Shown: in pieces, positions 4,863 to 59,000 of the stretch
How the letters are laid out: each line of letters begins with the position of its first letter
Numbering within the stretch: the first letter of the stretch is position 1
Source of the DNA: an uncultured Sphingobacterium sp.
GTDB lineage: Bacteria; Bacteroidota; Bacteroidia; SpSt-205
Direction: 5' to 3'
Length of the DNA: 64,000 nt
Assembly (NCBI GenBank): GCA_964489015.1
Contig: CAZAXD010000007.1
Span: 2,257 to 66,256, forward strand
Program-made: the position numbers and the translations under genes
The notes under the pieces: model-generated
Told to the model about the DNA's origin: nothing
Databases searched by the model: none
What the model saw: only the letters and a program-made list of their open reading frames with translations

Positions 4863-5713
4863 CTTTTACGCAGAGGTATCGCTAATAAGGGATAGGCTAA
4901 ATGCTGAACGACATTCTCCGTAATACTACCAAATAAAAACTGGGCTAGACCTTTGCGACCATGCGTGCCCATTATCAAGAGATCAGCCTTCTCGGCTTCC
5001 ATAGCTTGCCGTAATCCCTCTTCTACAGAGATGTCGTTGTATACGCGAAGCTCCCAATGGGGATAGCTAAGGGCTGCCTTCAAATTATCCAAAAAGCGAT
5101 TGATAGTAGCCGTATCAAAAAAGACATACGGGGTGTTGATAACGGACAGAATGACTTTTACATTGGGCCATGCTGCCAAAAATCGAATAGCATCTTGAAT
5201 GACTTCTATCGTTTTATCTTCAAAAACCTCTATCGGGAGAAGCACCCGCTCATAAGGTCTGTAACTATTTTGAGGATGCACAGCTAAAACCGGTAAAGGG
5301 CTATGCCGAATAAGTCGAGCCGTATTAGTCCCCAAGATACCGCCATCCCAGAGGCTCGTAGCCCCTCGAGTACCTACTACAATGAGATCGACATCTGAGA
5401 ACTTCGACAGGTAATCCTCGACCCGCCATACGGCATAATCAGATAAAAGGTGCGCATGAACGGGGACTTTATCGACGTCTACGGCCTGCACATAGGCAAG
5501 CAAATGCTTCTCTAATTCGGCTCGGATACGCCTATCAAGCTCGGCATCTATGACAGCCGAAAGCCCTCCCTGGTAAGCAATGCTGGCATAGGGCCGATCA
5601 TAAACATGCACCACGCGGATCGCTTTCCCCAGCTGACGGGCCAGGCTGATCGCATACCGATAGGCTACCTGGGCTGTCTCTGAGAAGTCTGTCAGGTGTA
5701 AAATGGCGTTCAT
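4859..5713 (-). CDS. Universal stress protein (tandem USP domains)
   Basis: ILHLTDFSE, DLIVVGTRG, DLLIMGTHGRKGLAQFLFGSITENV. Confidence 0.9.
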   Translation of the reverse strand: MNAILHLTDFSETAQVAYRYAISLARQLGKAIRVVHVYDRPYASIAYQGGLSAVIDAELDRRIRAELEKHLLAYVQAVDVDKVPVHAHLLSDYAVWRVEDYLSKFSDVDLIVVGTRGATSLWDGGILGTNTARLIRHSPLPVLAVHPQNSYRPYERVLLPIEVFEDKTIEVIQDAIRFLAAWPNVKVILSVINTPYVFFDTATINRFLDNLKAALSYPHWELRVYNDISVEEGLRQAMEAEKADLLIMGTHGRKGLAQFLFGSITENVVQHLAYPLLAIPLRKS

Positions 5714-5720
5714 TTCCTAG

Positions 5721-5728
5721 CAAAATTA
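5721..5728 (-). promoter_or_regulatory. -7 element TAATTTTG (usp)
   Basis: Perfect match, 7 nt spacer to ATG 5713. Confidence 0.7.
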
Positions 5729-5739
5729 CAAAAAAAAGA

Positions 5740-9233: not shown

Positions 9234-9604
9234 CAGTGCTCTTCTGATGCAGGCGGCAATTTCTTTAGCACCTCCTCGATGCGCCGAGCGTGCAACTGGG
9301 TCTCGTCAACGTAAAAATGCACGGTAGGCATGACCTTCACTAAATGACGTATCTGCTGAGACAGAGCATAGCGTATCTCCTTTTGGTACTGCCTCAAAAG
9401 CCGCACAATAAACGCCGCGCGATCAGAAGAGTAGGTGAGAATGTAGGCCCTTACCTGTTGTAAATCCGGCGTGAGCCGCACCTCGGTTAGCTCGATGAGA
9501 ACGTCTTTCAGGTCCGGGACCTGCTCCGCAAACGTACGCAAAATATCAGCTAGGTACTTATGAATCTCACCGGATAGGCGCTGCTGTCTAAGATTTTTGG
9601 GCAT
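9233..9604 (-). CDS. rbfA: Ribosome-binding factor A
   Basis: RQQRLSGEI, TEVRLTPDLQQVRAY, MPTVHFYVDE. Confidence 0.92.
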   Translation of the reverse strand: MPKNLRQQRLSGEIHKYLADILRTFAEQVPDLKDVLIELTEVRLTPDLQQVRAYILTYSSDRAAFIVRLLRQYQKEIRYALSQQIRHLVKVMPTVHFYVDETQLHARRIEEVLKKLPPASEEH

Positions 9605-9611
9605 GGATAAG

Positions 9612-9619
9612 CAAATGTA
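9612..9619 (-). promoter_or_regulatory. -7 element TACATTTG (rbfA)
   Basis: Perfect match inside a 17-nt intergenic gap, 7 nt spacer to ATG 9604. Confidence 0.7.
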
Positions 9620-15751: not shown

Positions 15752-16048
15752 TCAGAGAAGCTTCGTCAGCGCCATGGCCATGCCCATATTCCCCTCCACT
15801 TTGACTTTGCCAAACATAAACGCAGTCGCTGCGCTCGTCTTGCCTGTCAGCAGATCAGCTAGTGTGTCTTTACTAAGGCGCACCACACAATCCGCCGGTT
15901 TGTCTTCTGTACTGACTACAGGCGGCGCTTGATTCGCATCAATGTGTATAACCTGACTCCCCTCAATGACAAACTTGAACATTCCCTGTACGCCCGAAGC
16001 CTTGAGGGCACGCTCCCGGATCTGCTCCAAAATCTGCTCGGCGGTCAT
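15752..16048 (-). CDS. SCP2 sterol/lipid-binding domain protein
   Basis: ADCVV, AATAFMFGKVKVEGNMGMAM. Start moved to ATG 16048; the track's TTG is part of the promoter motif. Confidence 0.88.
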   Translation of the reverse strand: MTAEQILEQIRERALKASGVQGMFKFVIEGSQVIHIDANQAPPVVSTEDKPADCVVRLSKDTLADLLTGKTSAATAFMFGKVKVEGNMGMAMALTKLL

Positions 16049-16054
16049 ATCCCC

Positions 16055-16062
16055 CAAAGATA
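16055..16062 (-). promoter_or_regulatory. -7 element TATCTTTG (SCP2 operon)
   Basis: Perfect match, 6 nt spacer to ATG 16048. Confidence 0.7.
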
Positions 16063-17434: not shown

Positions 17435-18316
17435 TTAGGCCACACCAAGCACCCGAGCTACCGTACGACCGATTTCAGCAGGGCTTTCCACCACGGTCAC
17501 ACCGCACTGGGCTAGAAAGTCCATCTTTTCCCTGGCGCCACCTTTGCCGCCCGCGATAATAGCCCCTGCATGTCCCATGCGCCGGCCGGGTGGCGCCGTC
17601 TGTCCCGCAATGAAAGCCACTAATGGCTTAGTACCGTGGTCACGGATCCACTCGCCGGCCATCTCTTCGTCTGTACCTCCAATCTCGCCAATCAGGACTA
17701 TCGCTTCCGTCTCTGGGTCTTGCATAAAGAGCTTGACAATATCTAAATGCTTAGAACCCACCACTGGGTCGCCGCCAATCCCCACACAAGACGACTGCCC
17801 CAGGCCAGCCTGCGTAAGCTGATGAACGGCCTCATACGTCAGCGTTCCTGAGCGGCTCACCACGCCTACCCTTCCCCGCTTGTGAATGAAGCCAGGCATA
17901 ATCCCCATCTTACAAGCCTCTGGGGTGATGACACCCGGGCAGTTAGGGCCTATGAGTCGTGTATGCGGGTAGTCTGCTTGCAAAACGGCTTTGACTCGCA
18001 CCATGTCGCGAACTGGTACCCCATCGGTAATCGCTACGATGAGGCGTACGCCTGCCGCGGCTGCCTCTAAAATCGCATCCGCAGCCCCCGGCGCCGGTAC
18101 GAAAATAATAGATGCATCGGCACCTGTCGCCTGAACGGCCTCCCGAACGGTATTGAACACCGGCAAGTCTAAATGCTGCTGACCTCCCTTGCCAGGCGTA
18201 ACCCCCCCCACTACCTGCGTCCCATAAGCCAGCATCTGCTGCGCATGAAAGGTCCCCTCTTTTCCTGTAAAGCCCTGAACGATGACCTTGGTGTGCTTAT
18301 CTACTAGTATCGCCAT
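17435..18316 (-). CDS. sucD: Succinyl-CoA synthetase alpha subunit
   Basis: [40 protein letters not shown]. Start ATG 18316. Confidence 0.97.
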
Positions 18317-18320
18317 AATG

Positions 18321-18328
18321 CAAACATA
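18321..18328 (-). promoter_or_regulatory. -7 element TATGTTTG (sucD)
   Basis: Perfect match, 4 nt spacer to ATG 18316. Confidence 0.72.
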
Positions 18329-18408: not shown

Positions 18409-20166
18409 TTAGGGATTGAGAGCCGCTTTAAACTCGGCCGACTCCCGCTGCTTACGAAACTCTAGGTCTTTCTGGGCTTTCTGGGCCAGATTACGATCTA
18501 TCTGAATGGCACGGCGGAGGTTAGTAATGAGCAGATTATTATCCGCAGAACGGGCGCCTACGATGGCTAGCACATAATAAGCTAAGGCATGATCCCGATT
18601 TTGCTGAATGGCCTTCTCCAGAGCGACCTTGGCACCTGAGAGATCGTTCATGAGCAGTCGAGAAAGGCCCGCATTGTACTGAGCCGCAGGCAGATCGCCC
18701 GCATTGCCAAACGCTTCTGCCGCAGCCGCATACTGCGCCATCTTTTCGTACACTACTCCGAGATTGAAAGCTGCTTCGGGCGTCGGCCGAGCCGCATAGG
18801 AGGCTTGGAAGGCCTGAGCTGCCTGAGTATATTCTTTACGCTTAGCGTACACAAGGCCCATGTTATCTAGGATGGCTGGATTATTCGGGCTGAGGCGATT
18901 GGCCGTATTGAGGTAATCCATGGCTTCATCTAAGCGACCTGCTAAGATCGCCAACGCACCCAAGTCATTGAAAGAACGATGGTCCTGTCCGTACTGGGAA
19001 GCATACGCCTTGAGAAGGCGCTCAGATTCCTCGGGGCGTTGACGGCGCTTGGTAGCAAAGTAAAGCTCTTCTTGGCTAAGGGTTTGGAGCAGCTGCGCCT
19101 GCGACAGGCTCCCACTCAGAAAAGCACCCGCTATGCTATCGATTTGTTCGTCGGAGTACCGACCAGAGAAGCCCTCTAGCCGAACCTGCGTACGACGCAA
19201 AGGAGCCAAGATGAATTCTACTTCTTTCGCGCCGCCGACAAGTGCCATGACTTTTTGTTCTTTCACATCAGGCACGAGGTTAGAAGCAATCACCTGAATC
19301 ACCTGCTGACGCACATTGTCAGGGAGTGAAGTTTGGGCTAGGTTTTGCTTGAAGCCTTCCCAATCCTGAGGTGTAGCCGAAACCTTGAAAAAGGCGCTAT
19401 CCAGATAAGCCGTGTAACCCTCCTTACGCATCTGCTCAATGAGCCAGTTTTGGACTTCCTTATAGCGATTGAGGGAGAGAAACTGGTTTCGCTTGAAGCG
19501 GCCCTCCGGCGAAGCGTAACCAGCCAGCGTCACCGATGTGGCCGGATACTTCTTTTGAAGGAAGGCCACAATGTCGCGAATAGCCTGCTTCTCATACTCA
19601 CCCGGCTGAATGAGATGCACGTTTTGCGGAAATTGGAAAAGCGCTTCCAAGGTGACAGGCTTTTTAGAAGTGTAAGTGTGCTGCTCGTAAATCACATAAG
19701 GGCGATCATCGACCAAGCGAGAGGTCGTAATGCAACACGGCGCCAAATCAAAGTCCGGGAGATCAAAGGCCTTCCCTTTGCGCTCGTAGGCATTTTCGGC
19801 CACAAACATCCCGCCATCCATCCCCTCTTCAAAGGCGCGAACCCCTTGCACTGAAAGCGTGACGCCCTCGTTCTTGAGCTGCTTTTTCGGATACTGATCA
19901 GCCGAGATGTCTACCGAGCGAAACTCATACCGACTCGAACCGTTTTTGACAACAAGCTTCCCATGATAGACAGACTTCTTACGAAAGCCTGACTTGGGAG
20001 GGACGGTAACTTTCACGCTGTACTTGATGGAGTCAGCATGAACTTCCAAAGGATTAGGGTTAACCGTTACAACGGTTCCCTTAAACTTAGCACACTGCGT
20101 AAGGATTCCAAGAGCGAGAACCCCTACGCCCAGTTGCCAGCCGATGAAAAACTTTTTAGTTCGCAT
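18409..20166 (-). CDS. TPR-repeat lipoprotein with central OmpA-like segment
   Basis: Lipoprotein signal ending ILTQ-C; VNPNPLEVHADS; LAGYASPEG; multiple C-terminal TPRs. Start ATG 20166. Confidence 0.75.
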   Translation of the reverse strand: MRTKKFFIGWQLGVGVLALGILTQCAKFKGTVVTVNPNPLEVHADSIKYSVKVTVPPKSGFRKKSVYHGKLVVKNGSSRYEFRSVDISADQYPKKQLKNEGVTLSVQGVRAFEEGMDGGMFVAENAYERKGKAFDLPDFDLAPCCITTSRLVDDRPYVIYEQHTYTSKKPVTLEALFQFPQNVHLIQPGEYEKQAIRDIVAFLQKKYPATSVTLAGYASPEGRFKRNQFLSLNRYKEVQNWLIEQMRKEGYTAYLDSAFFKVSATPQDWEGFKQNLAQTSLPDNVRQQVIQVIASNLVPDVKEQKVMALVGGAKEVEFILAPLRRTQVRLEGFSGRYSDEQIDSIAGAFLSGSLSQAQLLQTLSQEELYFATKRRQRPEESERLLKAYASQYGQDHRSFNDLGALAILAGRLDEAMDYLNTANRLSPNNPAILDNMGLVYAKRKEYTQAAQAFQASYAARPTPEAAFNLGVVYEKMAQYAAAAEAFGNAGDLPAAQYNAGLSRLLMNDLSGAKVALEKAIQQNRDHALAYYVLAIVGARSADNNLLITNLRRAIQIDRNLAQKAQKDLEFRKQRESAEFKAALNP

Positions 20167-20191
20167 AACACGTGTAATTTGGTCTCCACGG

Positions 20192-20199
20192 CAAAGGTA
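20192..20199 (-). promoter_or_regulatory. -7 element TACCTTTG (TPR lipoprotein)
   Basis: Perfect match, 25 nt upstream of ATG 20166. Confidence 0.6.
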
Positions 20200-21042: not shown

Positions 21043-21050
21043 TAACTTTG
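21043..21050 (+). promoter_or_regulatory. -7 element TAACTTTG (hmgA), with TTTG -33 element at 21019-21022
   Basis: TTTG-N20-TAnnTTTG spacing fits the Bacteroidota consensus; 4 nt spacer to ATG 21055. Confidence 0.78.
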
Positions 21051-21054
21051 GGGC

Positions 21055-22242
21055 ATGCCTTATTATGTAAAGGCCGGACAAGTGCCATCCAAGCGCCACA
21101 TTCAGTTTCGCAATAACGGGAAGCTCTTCAGCGAAGAGCTCGTTAGTACCGAAGGCTTCTCGGATTTATATAGCCTCATCTATCATGTGCATCCGCCTAC
21201 GACCGTACGAGCCATAGCGGAGCAGACCTTGGACCTCCAGCCCAAGGCAGCTGTACCCAACAACATGCAGCATCGGGCGTTTCGGGGCTTTCAGGTCCAG
21301 CCCAAAGCCGATTATTTAGAGAGCCGAGTGATTGTGCTCTTCAATGAAGACGTGCACCTCGCCCTGGCCGCCCCCACGCAAGGCTTCTCGGATTACTTCT
21401 ACAAAAACGCCTCTGCGGATGAGCTCATCTTCGTCCACGAAGGGACCGGCGAACTGCGGACCGGTTACGGCCGAGTAGCCTTTGGACCTGGTGATTATTT
21501 ACACATTCCCCGCGGTACGATTTATCAACTGCACTTTGACACGCCCCAAAATCGCCTCTTTATCATAGAGTCTTACTGTGGTGCCATCCGCTTCCCCCGT
21601 CGCTACCTCAATGAATACGGCCAACTGATGGAGCATGCGCCCTTCCATGAGCGCGACCTGCGCCCCCCCAAAGACTTAGAAACCCATTACGAAATCGGGG
21701 AATTCGTGGTCAAGATCAAAAAGCGAGGCGAGCTTTTCACGTACGTTTATGCTACGCACCCCTTCGACTTTGTGGGCTGGGACGGCTGTCTCTACCCTTA
21801 TGCTTTTTCGATCCACGAGTTTGAGCCGATCACGGGCCGGGTGCATCAGCCGCCGCCCGTTCATCAAAACTTCGAAGCGCGACAGTTTGTCGTCTGTTCC
21901 TTCGTACCCCGGCTTTATGATTATCACCCGCTGGCGATCCCAGCGCCTTACAATCATAGCAACGTCGACTCCGACGAAGTGCTCTACTACGTAGAGGGCG
22001 AATTCATGAGCCGTAAACACGTGGAGCGCGGCATGATCACCCTGCATCCGATGGGAATCCCGCACGGGCCGCACCCCGGCGCCGTGGAACGTAGCATCGG
22101 CGCCAAAGAAACCCGAGAGCTAGCTGTCATGGTAGACACCTTCCGTCCCCTCGCCATCACGTCAGAGGCCCTTGCCATCGAACAGCCTGATTATTTCGTT
22201 TCTTGGCTTCCAGACAACCTTCAACTCTCGCAAAAATCCTAA
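21055..22242 (+). CDS. hmgA: Homogentisate 1,2-dioxygenase
   Basis: NASADE, FVVCSFVPR, PYNHSNVDSDEVLYY, HGPHPG. Confidence 0.93.
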   Translation: MPYYVKAGQVPSKRHIQFRNNGKLFSEELVSTEGFSDLYSLIYHVHPPTTVRAIAEQTLDLQPKAAVPNNMQHRAFRGFQVQPKADYLESRVIVLFNEDVHLALAAPTQGFSDYFYKNASADELIFVHEGTGELRTGYGRVAFGPGDYLHIPRGTIYQLHFDTPQNRLFIIESYCGAIRFPRRYLNEYGQLMEHAPFHERDLRPPKDLETHYEIGEFVVKIKKRGELFTYVYATHPFDFVGWDGCLYPYAFSIHEFEPITGRVHQPPPVHQNFEARQFVVCSFVPRLYDYHPLAIPAPYNHSNVDSDEVLYYVEGEFMSRKHVERGMITLHPMGIPHGPHPGAVERSIGAKETRELAVMVDTFRPLAITSEALAIEQPDYFVSWLPDNLQLSQKS

Positions 22243-25085: not shown

Positions 25086-25090
25086 TGGCG

Positions 25091-25098
25091 CAAATTTA
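25091..25098 (-). promoter_or_regulatory. -7 element TAAATTTG (apt), overlapping the upstream stop codon
   Basis: Perfect match whose first three bases are the TAA stop of the ComEA-like gene; 5 nt spacer to ATG 25085. Confidence 0.65.
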
Positions 25099-26046: not shown

Positions 26047-26073
26047 CTAATAGTAAATGTAACTTTTTTTGCA

Positions 26074-33059: not shown

Positions 33060-33067
33060 TATCTTTG
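33060..33067 (+). promoter_or_regulatory. -7 element TATCTTTG (hypothetical secreted protein)
   Basis: Perfect match, 4 nt spacer to GTG 33072. Confidence 0.68.
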
Positions 33068-33071
33068 AAGG

Positions 33072-33689: not shown

Positions 33690-33712
33690 ATCTTTATTAG
33701 AACTTTGCACCT

Positions 33713-39461: not shown

Positions 39462-39466
39462 GTGGG

Positions 39467-39474
39467 CAAAGTTA
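39467..39474 (-). promoter_or_regulatory. -7 element TAACTTTG (valS)
   Basis: Perfect match, 5 nt spacer to ATG 39461. Confidence 0.72.
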
Positions 39475-40484: not shown

Positions 40485-40679
40485 CTAGTCCTGCATCTGC
40501 TGGAGCAGACGCTGCCGATACGCAGCTCGTTTGATTTGCTCACGCTTCTGGACAGATTTCGGAATGAAGTGCATGCGACTCCGCACCTCCCGAGCAATGC
40601 CAAGCCGATCAAACTTACGCTTGTACCGGCGAAGCATCTTCTCCAAGTTTTCGCCTTCCTGCTGTTCTATGACAATCAT
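40485..40679 (-). CDS. rpsU: 30S ribosomal protein S21
   Basis: MIVIEQQEGENLEKMLRRYKRKF...FIPKSVQKR...AAY. Start moved to ATG 40679. Confidence 0.95.
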   Translation of the reverse strand: MIVIEQQEGENLEKMLRRYKRKFDRLGIAREVRSRMHFIPKSVQKREQIKRAAYRQRLLQQMQD

Positions 40680-40685
40680 GGGGGG

Positions 40686-40693
40686 CAAAGATA
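40686..40693 (-). promoter_or_regulatory. -7 element TATCTTTG (rpsU)
   Basis: Perfect match, 6 nt spacer (CCCCCC) to ATG 40679. Confidence 0.72.
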
Positions 40694-40698
40694 CGACT

Positions 40699-41886
40699 TT
40701 AGGCCTTTTCTAGCAGCAAGCTCACACCTTGGCCCACCCCTACACAAAGCGTAGCTAAGCCATAGCGCTTGTTATACCAGTGAAGGCTACGGGTCAGGGT
40801 CCAGGCTAAGCGTGCACCCGTAGCCCCCAAAGGATGACCTATCGCAATGGCGCCGCCGTGCACATTGAGGCGGTCTGGATCCAACTCTAATAACTGGGCA
40901 CAAGCTAATACCTGCGCCGCAAAAGCTTCATTGAGCTCGATGAGGTCTATCTCGCTGAGGGCAAGGCCTAAGCGAGCCAAGAGCTTTTGGGTCGCGGGAA
41001 CGGGACCTATGCCCATATAGGAGGGATCCACGCCGGCAGTGGCTGCACCAACAAGCCGCGCTAAGGGCCCAAGACTATGAACTCTAAGCGCCCGCTCACT
41101 GGCAAGCAGCAATATCGCAGCCCCATCGTTGACCCCTGAACTGTTTCCAGCCGTAACGGTGCCCCCTGCCCGAAAGGCCGGCCTAAGCTTGGCTAGTCGC
41201 TCCAGCGTCATATCGGCGCGCGGATGCTCATCTTCTTCTAAGTAAGTGCCATCTGGCAGGGGTATCGGAAAGAGCTCATCGGCCCAAAAGCCCGCCGCCT
41301 TAGCCGCCTGGTAACGCTGCTGAGAAATCAAAGCATAAGCATCTTGCGCTTCTCGGGAGATACGATACCGCTCAGCCACGTTTTCCGCCGTCTCTCCCAT
41401 GCTATAGGGCGGATACTTTTCCGCCAGCCTAGGATTGATAAAGCGCCAGCCGATGGTGGTGTCGTAAATCTCTGCTTTTCGGGAAAAAGCGGTCTCTGCT
41501 TTGGGAAGCACGAAGGGGGCTCGGCTCATGCTTTCGACACCACCTGCTAGCACCAGGTCGGCTTCCCCTGCCGCTATCATACGCGCCCCGTAAATCACTG
41601 CTTCTAAGCCAGAGGCACAAAGCCGATTAACGGTCACGCCAGGCACGCTCTCAGGCAGTCCGGCCAATAGCACGGCCATGCGAGCTACGTTACGATTATC
41701 TTCCCCCGCTTGATTGGCACAGCCCACCACAACCTCGTCATAAGCTTCCGGGGGAATCTGCGGGTATCGACTAATAAGCGCGTGCATCAGATGAGCTATC
41801 AAATCATCTGGTCGCACGACAGCTAACTTGCCCCCGTAACGCCCAAACGGACTCCGAAGTCCCCCTATGATAAACGCCGCTGCCAT
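40699..41886 (-). CDS. Acetyl-CoA C-acyltransferase (thiolase, PcaF/PaaJ-like)
   Basis: [48 protein letters not shown]. Start ATG 41886. Confidence 0.93.
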
Positions 41887-41890
41887 CCAA

Positions 41891-41898
41891 CAAAGGTA
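41891..41898 (-). promoter_or_regulatory. -7 element TACCTTTG (thiolase)
   Basis: Perfect match, 4 nt spacer to ATG 41886. Confidence 0.72.
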
Positions 41899-42142: not shown

Positions 42143-42150
42143 TACCTTTG
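42143..42150 (+). promoter_or_regulatory. -7 element TACCTTTG (yceI-like)
   Basis: Perfect match, 4 nt spacer to ATG 42155. Confidence 0.72.
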
Positions 42151-42154
42151 TTCT

Positions 42155-42838
42155 ATGGCCAACTTCTTGAGTAAGCTTCTCTCTGCACTGGGCTTAACAA
42201 GGAGCAATGGGAAGGCCGATCGCAAAGCACTTGTCAAACGGCTCCCAACTCTGCCACGCCTCTCAGAGTGGATCGTAGACCCCTTTCACAGTTCTATCCA
42301 GTATCGCGTTATGCACATGGGCCTTGTGGAGGTACGGGGGCGCTTCCGAAGCTTCAATGCTTCCTTTCGCGGCACTTCACCCGACTTTTCGGACATGCAG
42401 GTCGTAGTAGAAGTGGATGTGGCTTCTTTGGAGACCGACATGAGCGCTCGTGATGCGCATTTGCGCTCGGCAGACTTTTTCGACGCAGAAAAGTATCCAA
42501 AAGCTACCTTTCGCAGCACCAAGGTCGAATGGCGGCCCCTGCGTAGCTTCCGTCTGTATGGCGATCTCACGCTAAAGGGCAAAACGCACCCCATCTACCT
42601 TGACGGCAAGTTAGAATCCTTTGTACTCAAAGACATGGTGGGCCATCCTCGGGTCAGTTTCACAGCCACCGCTACCATCGACAGGCGGGCCTGGGGGCTT
42701 ACCTGGCAGATAGAGCTCGAAGGCGGCGAGCTCGTAGCGGACAACCTTGTCACGATTGAGGCTTCTGTAGAGCTTATGACCCCAGCTGGCTTCGAGGCTC
42801 TCAAGCAGCTCATGGCCTCCATGGGCATAACCGTCTAG
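42155..42838 (+). CDS. YceI-family lipid/isoprenoid-binding protein
   Basis: VDPFHSSIQYRVMH, VRGRF, RDAHLRSADFFDAEKYP, GDLTLKGKT, IDRRAWGL. Start ATG 42155. Confidence 0.92.
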   Translation: MANFLSKLLSALGLTRSNGKADRKALVKRLPTLPRLSEWIVDPFHSSIQYRVMHMGLVEVRGRFRSFNASFRGTSPDFSDMQVVVEVDVASLETDMSARDAHLRSADFFDAEKYPKATFRSTKVEWRPLRSFRLYGDLTLKGKTHPIYLDGKLESFVLKDMVGHPRVSFTATATIDRRAWGLTWQIELEGGELVADNLVTIEASVELMTPAGFEALKQLMASMGITV

Positions 42839-44431: not shown

Positions 44432-44439
44432 TATATTTG
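44432..44439 (+). promoter_or_regulatory. -7 element TATATTTG (porin-family gene)
   Basis: Perfect match, 6 nt spacer to ATG 44446. Confidence 0.7.
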
Positions 44440-44445
44440 GGGTCG

Positions 44446-45093
44446 ATGGTTTCTCGCCTGTTTTTAGTTGTCAGCTTGGCATGGGCTCAAAGTAAGGACC
44501 CCTGGTTTGGACTGCGAGCTGGGCTAAATTGGGGGCAATACGTCACCAAGGATCGTCAAGACATTCGATCCCTAGCCTATTGGGGCGGCGGCTTTAGCGG
44601 TGCTTTGGGGGTTCACCAGGCCATCGACCAGAAGGGGTTCTGGGCCCTACAAGGAGAATTAGGTCTGACTCAGCGGCGCGGCACCGATAGGAATCTGCTT
44701 AGCGATTATCGCTTCAATCTTTGGAGCTTAGACCTCACAGCCCTTGGCGTATGGCGCTGGATGCGCAAGTTTGAAGGGCTATTTATACAAACCGGCCCTA
44801 TGTCCAGTGTGCTCCTCTATGGCAAATATTGGGAGCGCGACAACCTCTCATCAGAGATAGAAACGCGCAAGGTTGCTTTTGGACGAGGGGACACGCGCGA
44901 TATTCGCCGCGGCGAAATTAGCTGGGTTATCGGCATGGGTACGGGGTACTTAGTAGGACCTGGTTATCTCACCTTTGATTTGCGCTTCTGGCATGGTCTG
45001 AACAATCTTAGTAGTGGTGCCTTCAAGAGATGGAAGTCTTACGGCGTGCTCATGAACCTCATTTACTGGTACGACGATAGCCTCCGTGAGTAG
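44446..45093 (+). CDS. Outer-membrane beta-barrel protein (porin/PorT-like family)
   Basis: Signal MVSRLFLVVSLAWA-Q; FGLRAGLN, ELGLTQRRG, DLRFWHGLNN alternating strands. Confidence 0.72.
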   Translation: MVSRLFLVVSLAWAQSKDPWFGLRAGLNWGQYVTKDRQDIRSLAYWGGGFSGALGVHQAIDQKGFWALQGELGLTQRRGTDRNLLSDYRFNLWSLDLTALGVWRWMRKFEGLFIQTGPMSSVLLYGKYWERDNLSSEIETRKVAFGRGDTRDIRRGEISWVIGMGTGYLVGPGYLTFDLRFWHGLNNLSSGAFKRWKSYGVLMNLIYWYDDSLRE

Positions 45094-45511: not shown

Positions 45512-46109
45512 CTTGATGGGTAGTCTGAGCGTATAGAAACACCTCTCGCCGAAGCGTCTGACTAAGCCTCAATTCTACAAGCAGGGCCACATTCCAGATT
45601 TGACCGGGCATGACCCGACGCACATCCGCTAAAGAGACCCGATTCCATTCCTGGATCGGTTGGCCGCCTGATGCCTCATACTGCAGCATGAGCGTCTGCC
45701 CAAAGGGAATGAGCATTTGCGGTCCTAATCCCAACGCAAAGGCTCCCTCGTCGTCAAAAGTCATTCGCCATAAGACCTGCATGTTTATGAAGTGGGTATA
45801 GGTGTGGGCCTGAGCTATCCCCGTGAGCGGTCGGCCCATTAGCGGTGAAATGTAGATACTACTATCCAAGACCAGCCGCGAGTGCCCCATGAAATAGCCG
45901 ACCGACGTGGCTAACCCATGGCGAAGCTTGGAGCGGGGACTATGAAATAGCTCGATATGGCCTTGTGCCCCCGCTTCTACCCCTAGCCGCACCAAAAATT
46001 GGGCATACTCAGTCCGATATTGATACAAAGTCCCCCCCCCACGTATACCAAAGGCGCTTGATTGGGCCCATAAATACCCGATCAGCAGAAAAAATGATAG
46101 CCGTGCCAT
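45441..46109 (-). CDS. Probable outer-membrane beta-barrel protein
   Basis: Signal MARLSFFLLIGYLWA-Q; FGIRGG first strand; alternating hydrophobic strands. Start ATG 46109. Confidence 0.62.
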   Translation of the reverse strand: MARLSFFLLIGYLWAQSSAFGIRGGGTLYQYRTEYAQFLVRLGVEAGAQGHIELFHSPRSKLRHGLATSVGYFMGHSRLVLDSSIYISPLMGRPLTGIAQAHTYTHFINMQVLWRMTFDDEGAFALGLGPQMLIPFGQTLMLQYEASGGQPIQEWNRVSLADVRRVMPGQIWNVALLVELRLSQTLRREVFLYAQTTHQVNRYLWPTGLMVGLALLWKGRVG

Positions 46110-46112
46110 CTT

Positions 46113-46120
46113 CAAAGATA
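46113..46120 (-). promoter_or_regulatory. -7 element TATCTTTG (beta-barrel gene)
   Basis: Perfect match, 3 nt spacer to ATG 46109. Confidence 0.68.
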
Positions 46121-46305: not shown

Positions 46306-46626
46306 TTACTCATCCAGTCCTAAGTAAAGACTAAGCTTAGACCGAAAGTCGCGCAAGAGCTGAAGGTCGCGCTGATCGGCTGCTAGACGCTCACCCTCCC
46401 GAAAGACACTGATAGCCTCAGCCGTTCGACCCTGGGCTTCTAGAATGAGACCAAGTTGGTAGTATGTGGGGTAATACCGAGGAGCCCGTCTCAATGCTTC
46501 TTGAAAGGCCCATTCCGCCTCGGGATAGCGTCCTTGACCAGCTAGATAGACCCCCAAAGCATGCGGCCAGAATGGATCTGTCGGCGCTGCTGCAGCCTGT
46601 TCCCGAAGGTATACCTCTCGGTCCAT
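46306..46626 (-). CDS. Small TPR protein
   Basis: PTDPFWPHALG, YYPTYYQLGLILE, EAISVFREG. Confidence 0.8.
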   Translation of the reverse strand: MDREVYLREQAAAAPTDPFWPHALGVYLAGQGRYPEAEWAFQEALRRAPRYYPTYYQLGLILEAQGRTAEAISVFREGERLAADQRDLQLLRDFRSKLSLYLGLDE

Positions 46627-46630
46627 GAAT

Positions 46631-46638
46631 CAAAAATA
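46631..46638 (-). promoter_or_regulatory. -7 element TATTTTTG (small TPR gene)
   Basis: Perfect match, 4 nt spacer to ATG 46626. Confidence 0.7.
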
Positions 46639-46691
46639 CGAGTCCCACCTCATGCAACCAGCGCCTAGTCTGACGTCGTATATATAGCGTT

Positions 46692-47156
46692 ATGCGTACC
46701 GAGCTAATCAAAATTCTGGTTCTGGGCTGGAGCCTCGGGCTCGCCCTCGCACAAGATGGAACGACCGCTATCGGTGTCATCGCCTCCAAAGACGGCCTCC
46801 GAGCCGCTACCATCCGCACCGTCCTCGGCGGCAACCCCTACCTCCACCTAAATACCACCCTCGGCAAGCAAAACACCGCTTGGACCGCCGGCCTCTCCCT
46901 CACTCAGTTCCTCTCTTTCTCGCCTTGCCGAGGTGCCTGCCGCCGAACCGCCCCCATCGCCCCTTACCTCGACTTCGGCGTGCGTATGAACTACATGCCT
47001 GAGGGTTCCACGACTACCCCCATCGGCCACGCCGGCGCTGGTGTGCTCCTGCCCCTCGGCTTTGTCGAGGTCTTCGCCCAAGCTAACCTCTACACCCCCA
47101 TCACCAATCCCCAACCCAAGCTCGACCTCGCCGGCGGTGTCCGCATCCGATTCTAA
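46692..47156 (+). CDS. Small outer-membrane beta-barrel protein with extreme C-ending codon bias
   Basis: Signal ending LALA-Q; terminal GGVRIRF (Bam-type C-terminal Phe); about 96 of 154 codons end in C by hand count. Confidence 0.75.
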   Translation: MRTELIKILVLGWSLGLALAQDGTTAIGVIASKDGLRAATIRTVLGGNPYLHLNTTLGKQNTAWTAGLSLTQFLSFSPCRGACRRTAPIAPYLDFGVRMNYMPEGSTTTPIGHAGAGVLLPLGFVEVFAQANLYTPITNPQPKLDLAGGVRIRF

Positions 47157-47232: not shown

Positions 47233-47275
47233 AGCGAACGAGGCATGGGGCTTTTTTTTCGTTTATTTGTGTACG

Positions 47276-48031
47276 ATGAAGATCCTCTGCTGCATCAGTC
47301 ACGTCCCTGACACCACTACCCGCATTCGCTTCTCGAGCGACGGAAAAAGTCTGGACCGGAATGGCGTTACGTTTATCGTAAACCCCTATGATGATTTCGC
47401 CTTAGCTCGCGCCGCAGAAATCAAGGAAAAAAGCCCTGGCACGCATGTGGCTGTCCTTTGCGTAGGCAAAAACGGTAGTAGCTCTACGGACAATGTAGAC
47501 GCTACCCTGCGGAAAGCTCTCGCTTTAGGCTTTGATGAGGCCATCCGTATCGATGCTGAAGCGACCGATGCCTACTTCGTGGCAGTCCAAATCGCCTCTT
47601 ATGCTAAGGACAAAAGCTTTGACCTTCTTCTTTTTGGCAAAGAGTCTATCGATTACAATGGCTCCCAAGTGCCAGGCATGGTTGCCGCCTTGTTAGATTA
47701 TCCCTTTGTCTCCTACGCTACCAGCCTTGAGGTTCAAGACGGTAAAGCTGTACTGACCCGTGAGATTGATGGGGGCAAAGAACAGCTAGAAAGTTCTTTG
47801 CCGCTCGTCCTCAGCGCCCAAAAAGGGCTTGCAGAATGGCGAATCCCGAATGTCCGCGGCATCATGCAGGCCAAAACTAAGCCCCTTCATGTCCTGCCCC
47901 CTACCACGGATGCACCCCGGGTTAAGACCCTTTATCATGAGCTCCCCCCCGAAAAAGGGCCTTTCAAGAAGTTTGATTTAGACCACATAGATGACCTGGT
48001 ACAAGAACTCGCAAACAAAGGGTTGATATAG
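47276..48031 (+). CDS. etfB: Electron transfer flavoprotein beta subunit
   Basis: MKILCCISHVPD, NPYDDFAL, GKESIDYNGSQV, REIDGG. Start ATG 47276. Confidence 0.95.
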   Translation: MKILCCISHVPDTTTRIRFSSDGKSLDRNGVTFIVNPYDDFALARAAEIKEKSPGTHVAVLCVGKNGSSSTDNVDATLRKALALGFDEAIRIDAEATDAYFVAVQIASYAKDKSFDLLLFGKESIDYNGSQVPGMVAALLDYPFVSYATSLEVQDGKAVLTREIDGGKEQLESSLPLVLSAQKGLAEWRIPNVRGIMQAKTKPLHVLPPTTDAPRVKTLYHELPPEKGPFKKFDLDHIDDLVQELANKGLI

Positions 48032-51345: not shown

Positions 51346-51353
51346 TACTTTTG
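51346..51353 (+). promoter_or_regulatory. -7 element TACTTTTG (lactone oxidase)
   Basis: Perfect match, 4 nt spacer to ATG 51358. Confidence 0.72.
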
Positions 51354-51357
51354 AAAC

Positions 51358-52686
51358 ATGCGGGTTCAGAATTGGGGGCGTACCCTGGCTTTTACGCCGA
51401 CAGCGATCGTCACACCAACGAACGAAACAGCCATAACCCGTCTCATCCACCAAGCAAGCGAAAAGAAGATCCCTGTTCGCGTCGTAGGAGCGGGGCATTC
51501 TTGGACGCCCATGATTGAAACGTCTGGCTTCCTTGTCAAGCTAGATCGCTTACAGGGACTAATCTCGCTGCGCACGACCCAATCCGAGGCCACGCTGTGG
51601 GCAGGCACGCGTTTATACAAAGCGGGTCCCCTGCTATGGGAGGCCGGCTACAGCCTGGCCAATCAAGGCGATATTGACCGCCAGAGCTTGGCCGGGGCCT
51701 TTAGTACAGGCACCCACGGCACCGGCAAGAACTTCGGCGTTTTGGCTACACAGGCTGTTCACTACCGCTTCATAGACGGACAGGGGCACATGCACAATGT
51801 CTATCCAGAGTCAGACTCGCTGCGATTTCGCTGTGCTCAGGTTTCCTTGGGGCTGCTGGGCATTATTACACAAATCACACTCCGCCTTGAGAAGGCCTAC
51901 TACCTCCACCTTGAAAAGCGCGTCGAACCGCTGGATCAAACGCTCGAGCGCTTTCCGGCCTATTTAGATACATATCGGCATGTAGAGTTCTTCTGGTTTC
52001 CCTATAGTGACAAAGTAGGCCTTAAGCTAACCCAGCGCAGTGAAATGCCTGGTCAGACTTCCTTACTCAAGAAGTGGATAATAGATGGGCTTTGGGAGAA
52101 CGGGGCCTTTTGGCTCATCAATAAGGCAGCGGAACTCCAACCCGCCGCCTCGCCGCGTTTGTGTCGCTTTGCCGGCGCTAATATGGGCACGGAGACTCGA
52201 ATAGATAAGGCTTATCGGGTCTTCGCCACGGCTCGCTGGATACGCTTTCGGGAGATGGAGTACGGCGTACCTGCCGAAATGGGTTCCGAGGTATTGCGCG
52301 AGATCCAGCGATGGATTAATAAGCACCAGCCGGCCGTTAGCTTTCCAATAGAATATCGCTACGTGAAAGGCGATGACATCCCCCTCAGTCCGGCCTACGG
52401 TGGGGATCGCGTCTTTATTGCCGTTCATGCATACCACCGCATGCCTTACGAGGCCTTTTTTGCAGGTATCGAAGCTATCTTCCAGGCCTACGAAGGACGT
52501 CCGCACTGGGGCAAGATGCATACCGCCACCGCCGCCTACCTAGAAAAGGTCTACCCCGGTTTATCGCTCTTCCTGGCGGAACGAGAAAAGCTCGATCCGC
52601 AGGGGGTCTTCCTCACACCGTACTTTGAAAGGCTATTATGGGGCGATACAGTCTCCTCTTCTCAGGTTTTATCCTCTCAAGCTTAG
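51358..52686 (+). CDS. FAD-linked sugar-1,4-lactone oxidase (D-arabinono-/L-gulonolactone oxidase family)
   Basis: NWGRT, VVGAGHS, NQGDIDRQSLAGAFSTGTHG, EMEY, FPIEYR, GRPHWGK. Confidence 0.88.
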   Translation: MRVQNWGRTLAFTPTAIVTPTNETAITRLIHQASEKKIPVRVVGAGHSWTPMIETSGFLVKLDRLQGLISLRTTQSEATLWAGTRLYKAGPLLWEAGYSLANQGDIDRQSLAGAFSTGTHGTGKNFGVLATQAVHYRFIDGQGHMHNVYPESDSLRFRCAQVSLGLLGIITQITLRLEKAYYLHLEKRVEPLDQTLERFPAYLDTYRHVEFFWFPYSDKVGLKLTQRSEMPGQTSLLKKWIIDGLWENGAFWLINKAAELQPAASPRLCRFAGANMGTETRIDKAYRVFATARWIRFREMEYGVPAEMGSEVLREIQRWINKHQPAVSFPIEYRYVKGDDIPLSPAYGGDRVFIAVHAYHRMPYEAFFAGIEAIFQAYEGRPHWGKMHTATAAYLEKVYPGLSLFLAEREKLDPQGVFLTPYFERLLWGDTVSSSQVLSSQA

Positions 52687-53501: not shown

Positions 53502-54167
53502 CTAGTTTTTGTCACTAGCGTAAAAGCCCCCTCCCCCTATTCGCAGCCGGACGAAAGCTAAGAAAGGCCTTATCTGGGGACCGCCTTGTAGCATCACATT
53601 CTCCCCCTCCCACTCCTGCCAGCCCATGAGCCCTTGTAAAATGCCTGCCGAGAGTCCCACCATAATCCCTCCTTTTATGACCTTTTGAACCTCCAACGCA
53701 CCGCCGAGGAGACCGCCGCCTGTTCCGATTTGCGTTTCCAGCGCCGGTGTGGTACCGAGTTGGGCAAAAGGTATCTGCACCCTATCTCGAATTCGGAAAA
53801 AGACTCCCCCGGCCCCGCCGGATACAACGGGCATCACGTGAAACCCTCCCACTGGCACCGCATAACCTACCCGGACCCACCCCATGCCACCCGCTAATCC
53901 ACCTCCTAAAAGAGAACCACCGCCTCCACCAAGGTGAAATCCTCTTATCCAGAATCCGCCCTCTCCTCCTAATCCAAAAACACCGCTCGCTACGTCGAAA
54001 TCGATCCCCTGAGCCCGCAAGGCATCCTTTAGGGGTACTAGGCCAGTAAGATACGTATACTGCGCCCAAAACCAACCACCACCTCCACTAAGACCTTGGG
54101 CTTCGCTTCGGTTCAGTAGGAGACATACCAAGGCTAGCTTTGTTAGGAAACCTGGCTTCATACGCAT
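53502..54167 (-). CDS. Hypothetical Gly-rich outer-membrane beta-barrel protein
   Basis: Signal ...RSEA-Q; GGEGG, alternating strands, C-terminal RLRIGGGGF. Confidence 0.6.
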   Translation of the reverse strand: MRMKPGFLTKLALVCLLLNRSEAQGLSGGGGWFWAQYTYLTGLVPLKDALRAQGIDFDVASGVFGLGGEGGFWIRGFHLGGGGGSLLGGGLAGGMGWVRVGYAVPVGGFHVMPVVSGGAGGVFFRIRDRVQIPFAQLGTTPALETQIGTGGGLLGGALEVQKVIKGGIMVGLSAGILQGLMGWQEWEGENVMLQGGPQIRPFLAFVRLRIGGGGFYASDKN

Positions 54168-54191
54168 GTAAGCAAATATGGCTAAAAACGT

Positions 54192-55243: not shown

Positions 55244-56017
55244 TTAGCGTCCCTTCCACTGCGGGGGTCGTTTCTCCATAAAGGCTTGCATACCTTCTTT
55301 TTGGTCTTGCGTCGCAAAGAGGAGATAGAAGTTTCGGCGCTCAAAGTGAAGGCCTTCCTCGAGGGAGAGTTCGTAGCTTTTGAGCACGGCCTGCTTGGCT
55401 AGCTGAACGGCGAGAGGAGGCATGCTCGCAATCTCTGTGGCTAGCTTGATAGCTTCCTCTAAATAAAGCTCGACAGGAACGACCCGGCTCACAAGCCCCC
55501 ATTCATAAGCCTGCTGCGCTGAAAAGAATCGCCCTGTTAGGATGTGCTCCATTGCGCGGGATTTGCCAATGGCTCGGGTGAGTCGCTGCGTACCGCCTGC
55601 GCCGGGAATAACACCAATTTTGATTTCCGGCTGGCCAAACTGAGCGGTCTCACTCGCCACGATGATGTCACAAAGCATCGCTAGCTCACAGCCGCCCCCT
55701 AAGGCAAACCCGCTAACTGCCGCAATCACAGGCTTTTTCAGCCGCTTGATTTGGTCCCACCGCTGGAATTGGTCTAGCATCAGCATGTCGACGGCCGAAT
55801 CGCCTGCCATCTCCTTGATGTCGGCGCCCGCCGCAAAGGCGCGCTCGTTTCCGGTGATCACCGTAACCCGCACATCCTCATCCGTGTCTAATTGTAGGAG
55901 CATATTAGAGAGGTCTGCAACGAGAGCCCGATTGAGGGCGTTGAGGCTCTCTGGGCGATTGAGTCGAATCAGCGCTACGCCTGGCGCGACGGCCTTTTCG
56001 AGTACAAGGTGACTCAT
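55244..56017 (-). CDS. Enoyl-CoA hydratase (crotonase, PaaF-like)
   Basis: LNRPESLNAL, FAAGADIKEM, ALGGGCELA, FGQPEIKIGVIPGAGGTQRL. Start ATG 56017. Confidence 0.93.
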   Translation of the reverse strand: MSHLVLEKAVAPGVALIRLNRPESLNALNRALVADLSNMLLQLDTDEDVRVTVITGNERAFAAGADIKEMAGDSAVDMLMLDQFQRWDQIKRLKKPVIAAVSGFALGGGCELAMLCDIIVASETAQFGQPEIKIGVIPGAGGTQRLTRAIGKSRAMEHILTGRFFSAQQAYEWGLVSRVVPVELYLEEAIKLATEIASMPPLAVQLAKQAVLKSYELSLEEGLHFERRNFYLLFATQDQKEGMQAFMEKRPPQWKGR

Positions 56018-56021
56018 GGCG

Positions 56022-56029
56022 CAAAAATA
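56022..56029 (-). promoter_or_regulatory. -7 element TATTTTTG (enoyl-CoA hydratase)
   Basis: Perfect match, 4 nt spacer to ATG 56017. Confidence 0.72.
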
Positions 56030-56063
56030 CAACCCCCCTCGCTAAGCCTGAGGAAAAATGGTG

Positions 56064-56071
56064 TATATTTG
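56064..56071 (+). promoter_or_regulatory. -7 element TATATTTG (DUF4175 operon)
   Basis: Perfect match, 8 nt spacer to ATG 56080. Confidence 0.66.
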
Positions 56072-56079
56072 TAGAGCAG

Positions 56080-59000
56080 ATGGCCAGCGATCTCCTTAGA
56101 AGCCACCTTGTTCGATTTCGGGCCACGTATTACAAGCTGCGGGCGATAATCGGCCTTCTTCTGGTGCTTTTGTGGGGCTTAGGCACGTTCTTGGTGGCTA
56201 GTCTTACAGAAGGCCTCTTCTGGTGGAAGGTGCCGGTGCGGCTCATCCTATGGAGCGCTTGGCTCGGCGGTACGGCCTACCTTTTTGTGAGTCGGGTTTT
56301 ATGGCCCCTTCTCCAATACGGCTTTCGATTGAAGGGATACCTATCTGATGAGGAGGCCGCCCGTTGGATCGGTCGCCACTTACCGGAGATTCAAGACAAA
56401 CTCCTAAATGCGCTGCAGCTGGAAAGAGCCAGCGACACAGCCCAAGCCGCCATTGCGCTGGCTCTAGAAGAGCGGCAAAAGGTCGTTCTACGCTACCCTT
56501 GGGAAGTGTCTTTACCCCGAGCGCCTATCCGCCGCTTTGGTTTGTTGCTCGGCCTTGTGATAGGGATGGGCACCCTCTTATGGTTAAGCATCCCACAGGT
56601 GTTAGGGGGGGGAGCGCATCGCTTCTTACGACCTACGCAGGCTTTTACGCCCCCCCTTCCTTACAAGCTAACCGTTCAGGGCCTGCGACCGATTTATCGA
56701 CGGGGCGAGCCGCTCTCGCTACAACTTCACTTAGAGGGCTCCAAGCTCCCTGGAGAAATTTATGCTAGGCAAGATGGCGATTTTCCTTTGCCTTTGCGTC
56801 GGCACTCTAGCAGTCAGTACGAGCTCACCCTTCCTGCCGTAGAAAGACCCTTCACCCTTCAGGTCTCAGATGGCGAAAACCTACTGGGCTCTTATGCGAT
56901 TCGGGTAGAGCGCCCTCCTGTGATCCGTAAAATTCTCACGGTCGTGAGTTATCCTGCTTACACGGGTTTAGCGCCAGATACGGTCTTAGAAGGGCGGCTC
57001 CGCGTGCTAAAGGGCGCAAAACTCTCCCTATGGCTAGATATCGAGAGCTCGATGCCCCATCAGCTTTTAGCGCCCACATTATCTCTACGCTTAGAGGGTG
57101 GGCAGTGGCATGCCTCCCTTTCGGCTTTGACGTCTCAAGTGCACCCCATCATTTTACAAAGTCAGGCTAGCCGAGATACCTTTCATCTCAGTATCGAGAT
57201 CCTCGAGGATGACTACCCCTCGGTACAGCTCTTCTCGGAATGGTTTGAGGCCCAGTCCTATGAGCAGCGGCTGCGAATCCGGCTTATGGATGACTTTGGC
57301 TTTTCTAAGGCGGTTTTGTGGTACCGCATTTTGGAGGGGACGACGCCAGGCCGCACGCAAGAGCACTACAAAGCCTACCCCCTCGCCATCAGCACCCAAG
57401 CCCAACAGGAACTTGGGCCTACTATTCATTGGCAAAAGCTAGGCGTTTTACCGGGCGATAAAGTCGAGTATTACGTCGAAGTGTGGGATAATGATGCTGT
57501 CTCCGGGCCCAAAGCCTCCCGAAGCATCTTATACACCCTACACTCAGCCAACGAACCTGAAAAGCAGGCTATTTTTGCTGCGCTCCAGGACTCTTTGTCT
57601 AGAGAAATGCACGCCCTTCGAGAAGAGTTAGACAGACTCCTCTCCCAAAAGGAGTTGCAAACCTCGCCTCAGCGAGCGTCCGCCCTTTCGGAGCGATTCC
57701 GCGCTCTGCGAAGTGAAATGAGATCTCTACAGCGCCTGGCACAAGAGGAGGCGTTATTTACCCCAGAACTCTTAGAGAAAATGGAGGCTCTGCAAAAGAT
57801 CTTAGATGCCATAGACCCGCAAAAAGTTGAGCAGCTCTTAGCCCAGCCTCCGCCTCGACAGGATTCCACTGAAATTGCAAAACGGCTAGAAGAATTGCAA
57901 AAAGCCTACGAAGCTTGGAAAGAAAAGCTTGAACGCTGGGAGTCCCTCTTACCCGCCTATCAGGAAGCCCGTAAGCTAGAAGAGCTGATGACGCGTCTCG
58001 ACGCCCTCTCCGAAACCCAGCGTCAGCTTAGCCAACAGCCAGACTCTCTCAATACCCCCCCCTCCGAAAAAGCTACGCAACAACGCCTGTCCGAGGAGAC
58101 TCAAAAGGTCTTGAGCGAACTAGACAGTATACTAAAAAGCAAACGATTATCTGAAAGCATACTACAAGATAGTCTCCAGAAAGCCCAAAAGGAATTACAA
58201 GATGCTCTAAGAAATATGCGGGACGCCCTCCAAAAGATGGAGCGAGGCGCCTCTCCGCGTGAAGATCAGCGGAAAGCATCGGAGTCCTTAGAGAACGCCT
58301 TAGAAGCCATCAATCAAGGGCAGCAGGCAGCTGATGCCCAATCCGCTGCGGAGGACTACGAAGCGCTACGACAATTGCTAAAGAACATCCTCCAGCTTTC
58401 TTTTCGTCAAGAAGCCGTTCAAAAGGAGAGTCTCGAAGCCCGGCGCTTCCTAAACTCGCTCTCCACACTTCAACGCAAGCAGGAGGAGATTAAGCGAGAC
58501 TATCGGATGGTAGGGGATACTTTGCAGGCACTGGCTAGCCGCTCTCCCGTCATTGAAGAAAACATCTTAGACATACTCCGAGACCTAGAAACGCACTTTC
58601 AGGGCTTATCGTATCTGCAAGCAGATCCGCTCCTGGTGCGACAGCAGTATATTCTCCAAGGACTAAACCGCCTAGCCAATCTCATGAGTGAACTGCTAAG
58701 CTCATTAGAGCAGCAGTCCCCCAGTAGTGGTGGGGCTTGTCAAAAGCCTTTTCGAATTCGGCGGAAAGGCTCTAAGGGAGCTACCACCCAAGGTTCTAAA
58801 CCAGAGAATAGCGGTCAGCAGCCGACTAGAGGTTCCGGCCGTCGAAATAGCCCCTCGCCTGTGCCCAATCTCCGTCAGATGCAGCAGGAGCTCAATGAAT
58901 CGCTGGAGCGGCTTGCCCAGCCCAATCCTGGCGCGGAGACCCCTGGGGGGCTTTCGCCATCGGACAGGGCTCGTCTCTCTGCTCAGCAGGAACTCATCCG

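Follow-up and report, generated by a model that had tools for sequence, protein, structure and literature searches.

Placement of the -7 promoter element beside start codons suggests leaderless operon heads in a deep hot-spring clade of Bacteroidia

The closest analogues of the architecture examined here are Deinococcus deserti, in which 60% of messenger RNAs (mRNAs) are leaderless (PMC4007540), and Mycobacterium and Streptomyces, which belong to 'group C' of GeneMarkS-2 (PMC6028130). Our subject is the -7 promoter element TAnnTTTG in a stretch of 64,000 nucleotides (nt) from an uncultured Sphingobacterium sp. (GCA_964489015.1, CAZAXD010000007.1, forward-strand positions 2,257-66,256; the window below). 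In the Bacteroidota reference species, median leaders measure 24-33 nt and 3.7-13% are shorter than 10 nt: the 5' untranslated regions of B. thetaiotaomicron have a median of 32 nt, with ~3.7% below 10 nt (PMC7366714), leaders of F. psychrophilum have a median of 24 nt, with 5.5% leaderless (PMC9723704), and 87% of leaders in F. johnsoniae exceed 10 nt, its authors stating that leaderless translation does not explain the lack of Shine-Dalgarno (SD) sequences (PMC6847099). A leaderless explanation has thus been tested and rejected for these three species. GeneMarkS-2 placed 408 of 450 genomes of the phylum (~90%) in the non-SD 'group B' (PMC6028130), and one genome survey recorded Pribnow-type leaderless genes in 1 of 37 genomes. 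We found no leaderless-dominant Bacteroidota lineage in the literature searched, the per-genome assignments of GeneMarkS-2 lying outside that search; earlier in-silico detection is possible. The -7 element itself has been published as T at -12, A at -11, T at -8, -7 and -6 and G at -5, with 4-5 nt to the transcription start site (TSS) and with G disfavored at the variable positions (PMC6847099; PMC9723704).

The window resembles group C in that a core promoter element stands at a fixed distance of ~6-10 nt before the starts of first genes, with ATG or GTG at the predicted +1 and no such element before internal genes, and in the comparable share of transcription-unit heads concerned (~50-70%). 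It differs in the element, which is the Pribnow box TAnnnT in group C and the sigma-ABfr -7 element TAnnTTTG here, and in that internal genes keep SD sequences in group C, whereas internal cistrons here are without them. The likeness to canonical Bacteroidota covers the same -7 consensus, the disfavored G and the lack of SD; the -33 region appears weak or absent, which F. johnsoniae promoters show as well. The phylum is otherwise described as leadered, with non-SD, A-rich initiation regions, whereas the modal distance in the clade described below would put +1 on the A of ATG. We read the form driven by the -7 element as new, leaderless architecture itself being known.

With the final G of the element at -5, a spacer of 4 nt would put +1 on the A of ATG, and spacers of 5-8 nt would correspond to leaders of 0-4 nt. 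On this basis we put at about 0.85 the probability that most operon heads of the window organism give mRNAs with leaders of 0-4 nt, 'most' standing for the ~50-67% of heads with a perfect motif and for a higher share once one-mismatch variants are included. An earlier note on this DNA had proposed such a pattern from 17 perfect elements and four one-mismatch variants; listing every match reproduced all 17 spacers, and a base-by-base check agreed for the variants. The 17 perfect elements are as follows.

5713-5728, minus strand: usp; TAATTTTG at 5728-5721, 7 nt, ATG 5713; Pfam Usp aligned from residue 3
9604-9619, minus strand: rbfA; TACATTTG at 9619-9612, 7 nt, ATG 9604
16048-16062, minus strand: SCP2; TATCTTTG at 16062-16055, 6 nt, ATG 16048; the motif's TTG at 16057 is in frame
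18316-18328, minus strand: sucD; TATGTTTG at 18328-18321, 4 nt, ATG 18316
21043-21057, plus strand: homogentisate dioxygenase-like gene (hmgA-like); TAACTTTG, 4 nt, ATG 21055
25085-25098, minus strand: apt; TAAATTTG at 25098-25091, 5 nt, ATG 25085
33060-33074, plus strand: 205-aa protein without a Pfam family; TATCTTTG, 4 nt, GTG 33072
39461-39474, minus strand: valS; TAACTTTG at 39474-39467, 5 nt, ATG 39461
40679-40693, minus strand: rpsU (bS21); TATCTTTG at 40693-40686, 6 nt (cccccc), ATG 40679; no SD
41886-41898, minus strand: thiolase; TACCTTTG at 41898-41891, 4 nt, ATG 41886
42143-42157, plus strand: YceI-like protein; TACCTTTG, 4 nt, ATG 42155
44432-44448, plus strand: outer-membrane beta-barrel protein; TATATTTG, 6 nt, ATG 44446
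46109-46120, minus strand: 222-aa protein; TATCTTTG at 46120-46113, 3 nt, ATG 46109
46626-46638, minus strand: TPR protein; TATTTTTG at 46638-46631, 4 nt, ATG 46626
51346-51360, plus strand: FAD/ALO-type lactone oxidase; TACTTTTG, 4 nt, ATG 51358
56017-56029, minus strand: enoyl-CoA hydratase; TATTTTTG at 56029-56022, 4 nt, ATG 56017
56064-56082, plus strand: 1090-aa membrane protein, first gene of a six-gene operon; TATATTTG, 8 nt, ATG 56080

The four elements with one mismatch stand at similar distances.

26046-26061, minus strand: comEA-like gene (HHH_3); TACATTTA, 7 nt, ATG 26046
33700-33715, plus strand: bcp (AhpC/TSA); GAACTTTG, 5 nt, ATG 33713
47262-47278, plus strand: etfB; TTTATTTG, 6 nt, ATG 47276
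54167-54180, minus strand: 221-aa protein; CATATTTG, 5 nt, ATG 54167

Both strands of the window together hold 44 matches to TAnnTTTG, against 27.0 +/- 4.7 in dinucleotide shuffles, none of the 100 shuffles reaching 44; the excess of ~17 equals the count of start-proximal motifs. This observation is strengthened by a test that uses no annotation, in which ATGs opening open reading frames (ORFs) of at least 100 codons were tallied at each distance after the motif. At 3-8 nt the window has 14 such ATGs where 0.58 would be expected (Poisson P=3e-15), and a further 5 occur at 9-60 nt, while control motifs (reversed, reverse-complement and four permuted) give 0-3 at 3-8 nt and TATAAT gives 0.

The placement extends beyond the window. 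Among contigs of one genome per species in GTDB, the closest valS relatives are metagenome-assembled genomes (MAGs) labeled uncultured hot-spring 'Bacteroidia bacterium' (KatS3mg025/026, SKYB*, SKYG57, SKW77 and DT_Bin_51/56), at 64-70% identity; the next is a Chitinophagales MAG at 52%, followed by Hydrotalea, Rhodohalobacter, Chlorobi and Ignavibacteria. Since valS identity is 65-83% inside the hot-spring clade and 49-54% between every member and Chitinophagales, the clade is a deep group of family to order level. The KatS3mg MAGs come from a spring of 52 degC (PMC9671151), and the window organism, a member of this deep Bacteroidia clade, is probably thermophilic. The window does not include rpoD; its assignment to Bacteroidota rests on these valS relatives and on a gene for PorV, of type IX secretion, at the window's left edge, which fits the phylum.

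In the clade loci, ATG stands 3-8 nt after 52 of 140 motifs, at exactly 4 nt in 30 of them, and all of L001-L009 and L025 contribute. A second, independent set reached via Fbp in JGI metagenomes (L081-L093, 136 kb) replicates this, with 24 cases at 3-8 nt versus 4 at 9-30 nt. When the loci are pooled without redundancy, 57 of 168 motifs have ATG at 3-8 nt (expected 4.0, P=2e-44; control motifs 0-7). Chitinophagales show 7 of 152, with a broad spread over 9-30 nt instead, and the counts are 2 of 85 in Balneolales/Rhodothermales, 0 of 109 in Chlorobi, 1 of 72 in Ignavibacteria and 3 of 281 in other phyla. The start-proximal placement is shared by the window organism and at least eleven related lineages, and the distribution supports a trait ancestral to the deep hot-spring clade, its nearest sampled neighbors being without it. 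A lineage-wide pattern, as the earlier note had suspected, holds for this clade and does not extend to the phylum; model Bacteroidota are mostly leadered, and the 3-8-nt peak is weak or absent in loci of Chitinophagales, Balneolales, Chlorobi and Ignavibacteria.

A comparison at the heads of transcription units, defined with a crude self-trained gene caller as divergent genes or genes preceded by a gap of 60 nt or more, gives a similar picture. In clade genomes the perfect motif precedes 58% of divergent heads (23 of 40) and 67% of the heads that follow such a gap, and in other Bacteroidota, Chlorobi and other phyla it precedes 0-5% of heads; in the window, 6 of 12 divergent heads carry it and 3 more have it with one mismatch. 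Before clade genes with a gap below 60 nt the share is ~23%, versus 58-67% at unambiguous heads, and many of the genes with the shorter gap appear to be heads with embedded promoters. Comparison by synteny was limited by poor gene-order conservation around valS in the relatives, and it could use valS, sucD, hmgA, the 1090-aa gene and a small number of internal genes. The upstream regions of valS from ten species cannot be aligned save for TA(C/T/A)CTTTG, 4-6 nt from a conserved ATG. The hmgA-like orthologue in L025 has TATTTTTG with 4 nt, and the orthologue of the 1090-aa gene in L022 has TATATTTG with 4 nt and GTG.

Three other explanations of the pattern were weighed. Chance, base composition or gene calling could be at work if starts had been picked for a nearby motif where T-rich upstream sequence is common, and in 9 of the 17 genes the start codon taken is indeed not that of the longest ORF, which involved a degree of choice. 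This reading is refuted by the annotation-free test and the permuted-motif controls, reversed and permuted motifs yielding no peak; Pfam and orthologue N-termini back the chosen starts, and the two independent sets of related loci replicate the pattern, which leaves it a negligible probability. Another explanation is that TAnnTTTG is a non-SD ribosome-binding motif of the 'group B' kind, acting at the mRNA level on leadered transcripts begun further upstream; Bacteroidota do use non-SD upstream features, as the ~90% share of group B indicates, and a T-rich motif could in principle bind protein S1. The same element at the same spacing, however, precedes tRNA genes, which are not translated: it stands 4-11 nt ahead of 25 tRNA genes in the clade loci and the window, at 4 nt for tRNA-Ser(UGA) in the window and nine loci and for tRNA-Ser(CGA) in L006 (7951-7963), at 6 nt for tRNA-Ser(GCU) in L084, at 8-9 nt for tRNA-Met and tRNA-Pro, and at 11 nt for tRNA-Ser(UGA) in four loci. 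Group B motifs precede all genes, whereas 27 operon-internal genes showed no TAnnTTTG, no SD and no A-rich peak. The element also agrees at every base with the -7 element known from experiment, and it shares the avoidance of G: in 78 aligned clade elements G has frequencies of 8% and 6% at the variable positions, with TACCTTTG the commonest form. In the sucD orthologues of L001, L007 and L008, moreover, TAGGTTTG stands 4-5 nt from ATG and directly 3' of a GC-rich hairpin and T-run; with a terminator directly ahead of the element, the transcript would have to start between the terminator and ATG. We consider a ribosome-binding motif very improbable, and the view of the earlier note, that the motif is a promoter with +1 a few nt past its G and no translation signal, is supported by the tRNA genes, the internal genes, the sucD terminator and the published element.

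The third explanation accepts start-proximal promoters as real but minor, with most protein made from longer transcripts that arise by read-through or from distal promoters. In its favor, 9 of the 17 promoters follow a co-directional gene at under 60 nt, a generic terminator scan gave no enrichment, and internal genes are evidently translated without SD or motif, which makes internal initiation possible. Divergent heads, however, are beyond the reach of read-through, and the perfect motif stands at 6 of the window's 12 and at 23 of the clade's 40, with no other promoter motif upstream. The strong conservation of the motif and of its precise distance in 10 species further speaks for selection of the proximal start, and we regard a minor role as unlikely. 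A scan for sigma70-type promoters gave no enrichment (10 versus 11.6 expected), which shows that such promoters are not used. Start-proximal promoters as the source of mRNAs with 0-4-nt leaders are our preferred reading, and the following points weigh against it. Leaderlessness is a strong inference in which +1 is extrapolated from the TSS maps of Flavobacterium and Bacteroides. Exact matches to valS (in two start variants), Fbp and bS21, sought as a lead to the source contig or to transcript-like contigs, were not on record. Spacers of 6-8 nt would correspond to leaders of 1-4 nt and so not strictly to zero. Many promoters lie only 10-27 nt past a co-directional gene without a recognizable terminator, and transcripts that read through from upstream, with these ATGs in internal positions, may also be made. 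The 78 elements have no information peak near -33, with a weak preference for A at -18/-19 and T at -16/-14; F. johnsoniae promoters are likewise without a -33 peak (PMC6847099), so that its absence does not discriminate. Folding at ORF 5' ends is no weaker than in internal windows of the same genes (minimum free energy -3.94 versus -4.18 kcal/mol, P=0.6), an uninformative result. The clade sequence sampled amounts to only ~0.4 Mb, with crude gene calling in the loci. Finally, two genes in the window carry the element at leadered distances.

636-664, minus strand: PorV; TACCTTTG at 664-657, 21 nt to ATG
20164-20199, minus strand: TPR/OmpA; TACCTTTG at 20199-20192, 25 nt to an in-frame ATG

Both are envelope-protein genes, and the spacer is 6 nt in the TPR/OmpA orthologues of L007 and L008.

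The left part of the window contains a tRNA gene that adjoins a protein gene, in the following order.

716-723, plus strand: -7 element TATTTTTG, 4 nt ahead of the mature tRNA-Ser(UGA) 5' end; same spacing in 9 related loci
728-815, plus strand: tRNA-Ser(UGA); discriminator G814, then C815, adjoining ATG 816 of fbp
816-1811, plus strand: fbp, class-1 fructose-1,6-bisphosphatase; Pfam FBPase aligned from residue 3 to profile position 2

The distance of 4 nt between motif and tRNA given in the earlier note agrees with these positions; in L082-L084 the tRNA-Ser promoter has CATATTTG in place of TATTTTTG. The element 4 nt from the mature 5' G points to a leaderless tRNA-Ser, and the 6-11 nt of other tRNAs to short leaders; tRNA-Ser would thus have no 5' leader to be removed and could do without RNase P. 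The window shares the junction ...CTCTCTCCGC|ATG with 12 related metagenome loci (L081-L092; L081 9904-10003) at Fbp identities of 70-79%, the Fbp N-terminus varying across identical junctions (MQLVTLEQF versus MVTLEQY), and distant Fbp homologues of 45-50% identity have no tRNA at the junction. A promoter inside the tRNA that would drive fbp was considered and rejected, as the 3' half of the tRNA has no TAnnTTTG-like sequence. An fbp without its own promoter, with its ATG one base past the tRNA-Ser discriminator, suggests a 5'-terminal AUG derived from processing; as the simplest reading we infer that fbp is co-transcribed with tRNA-Ser and then freed with a leader of 0-3 nt by tRNA 3' processing. 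A second junction, in which tRNA-Met(CAU) is followed by 2 nt (tt or gt) and the ATG of a conserved AAA ATPase of 338-339 aa, occurs in eight loci (L081 8729-9825, minus strand, and L085-L091). The ORFs that abut tRNAs fit a translation geared to 5'-terminal AUGs, and no bacterial precedent for a leaderless mRNA made by tRNA processing was found in the literature searched. Mitochondrial tRNA punctuation is similar in that the start codon directly follows the tRNA 3' end (fbp; 2 nt after tRNA-Met for the AAA ATPase); it differs in that a free-living bacterium is concerned here, with only two junction types and a cleavage predicted from the sequence. If the processing is real, these ORFs would be a bacterial counterpart of that system.

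The resulting model can be outlined in five steps. RNA polymerase with a primary sigma factor of the sigma-ABfr type would recognize TAnnTTTG at -12 to -5, as is established for the phylum and presumed here, and initiation would follow 4-5 nt past the G, which at the modal 4-nt spacer suggests a start on the A of ATG. The ribosome would then read the 5'-terminal AUG directly, with no SD or A-rich leader, the analogy being Deinococcus, mycobacteria and archaea. Downstream cistrons, which have neither motif nor SD and for the most part overlap or abut the preceding stop, would be reached by coupling or re-initiation, as their anatomy suggests, and tRNA 3' processing would supply a second route to a 5'-terminal AUG, with fbp as the example. 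Many internal genes overlap the preceding stop, many of them by 4 nt (ATGA), and 67% of the 27 genes have C at position -2. SD use by internal genes was rejected as a candidate, these 27 genes showing no SD peak. A scan of 132 kb (the window, L001, L003 and L025) at Rfam gathering thresholds returned only tRNA and no riboswitch, leader or cis-regulatory RNA, which fits the leaderless model in a small sample. The haloarchaea and Sulfolobus (GeneMarkS-2 group D) are alike in that most heads are leaderless and distal cistrons are often without SD, and different in their TATA/B recognition element ~26 nt upstream and in their translation initiation machinery. The broadest form of the model, a family- or order-level clade nearly without 5' untranslated regions in which most heads start at AUG, some tRNAs start from their mature 5' nucleotide, some mRNAs are released by tRNA 3' processing and distal cistrons are coupled without SD pairing, is in our judgment an even bet.

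How Bacteroidota ribosomes find start codons without SD pairing is the open question that these observations address. If the model is true, the clade ribosome depends on 5' ends and re-initiation, which provides a natural experiment on start choice by SD-blind Bacteroidota ribosomes; a sister clade with apparent leaderless dominance would mean two solutions in one phylum, and a comparative handle is gained on bS21, bS18, bS6, the anti-SD sequence and initiation factors. The bS21 gene is a case in point. The rpsU start of the window (40679-40693, minus strand) lacks an SD, unlike F. johnsoniae and its relatives, in which rpsU is reported to have a strong SD serving autoregulation (PMC10783764), and this SD-based circuit would be absent in the window organism.

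The choice of start codons has practical consequences for annotation. The longest ORF begins upstream of the motif-proximal start in 9 of the 17 genes, in agreement with the earlier claim that gene callers misplace such starts, and three of those longest-ORF starts are the motif's own TTG (16057, 40688 and 44437), which the earlier note had recognized as such and which is in frame at a spacer of 3 or 6 nt. Pfam N-terminal domains align from residues 1-14 of the proteins called from motif-proximal starts (residue to profile position: Usp 3 to 4, RBFA 6 to 1, SCP2 4 to 2, CoA_binding 6 to 1, S21 6 to 4, Thiolase_N 5 to 2, ECH_1 13 to 5, FAD_binding_4 14 to 1), and valS aligns from residue 1 with homologues of many phyla. 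Gene callers with ribosome-binding-site models misplace starts in clade genomes, at the promoter TTG or at an upstream ATG or GTG, and start calling aware of promoters would mend many N-termini in hot-spring MAGs. The gene names given earlier agree with Pfam, except for the label DUF4175 of the protein at 56080, which has 1090 aa and no Pfam hit and bears that name provisionally.

Several smaller features of the promoters were also observed. In the sucD orthologues of L001, L007 and L008 the intrinsic terminator of the upstream gene runs into the -7 element, and its T-run may also serve as upstream promoter sequence. The apt element TAAATTTG (25091-25098, minus strand) opens with the TAA stop of the comEA-like gene, and several more promoters are fitted into gaps of 10-27 nt or into the 3' end of the gene ahead of them, a very compact packing. 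The GTG start of tsaD at 40484 adjoins the rpsU stop TAG at 40487-40485 with a gap of 0 nt (40482-40487, minus strand). Two heads have look-alikes with two mismatches, TATATATA with 5 nt and ATG 46692 (46670-46697, plus strand) and TATTTACG with 7 nt and ATG 2636 (2606-2641, plus strand), which may be weak or alternative-sigma promoters.

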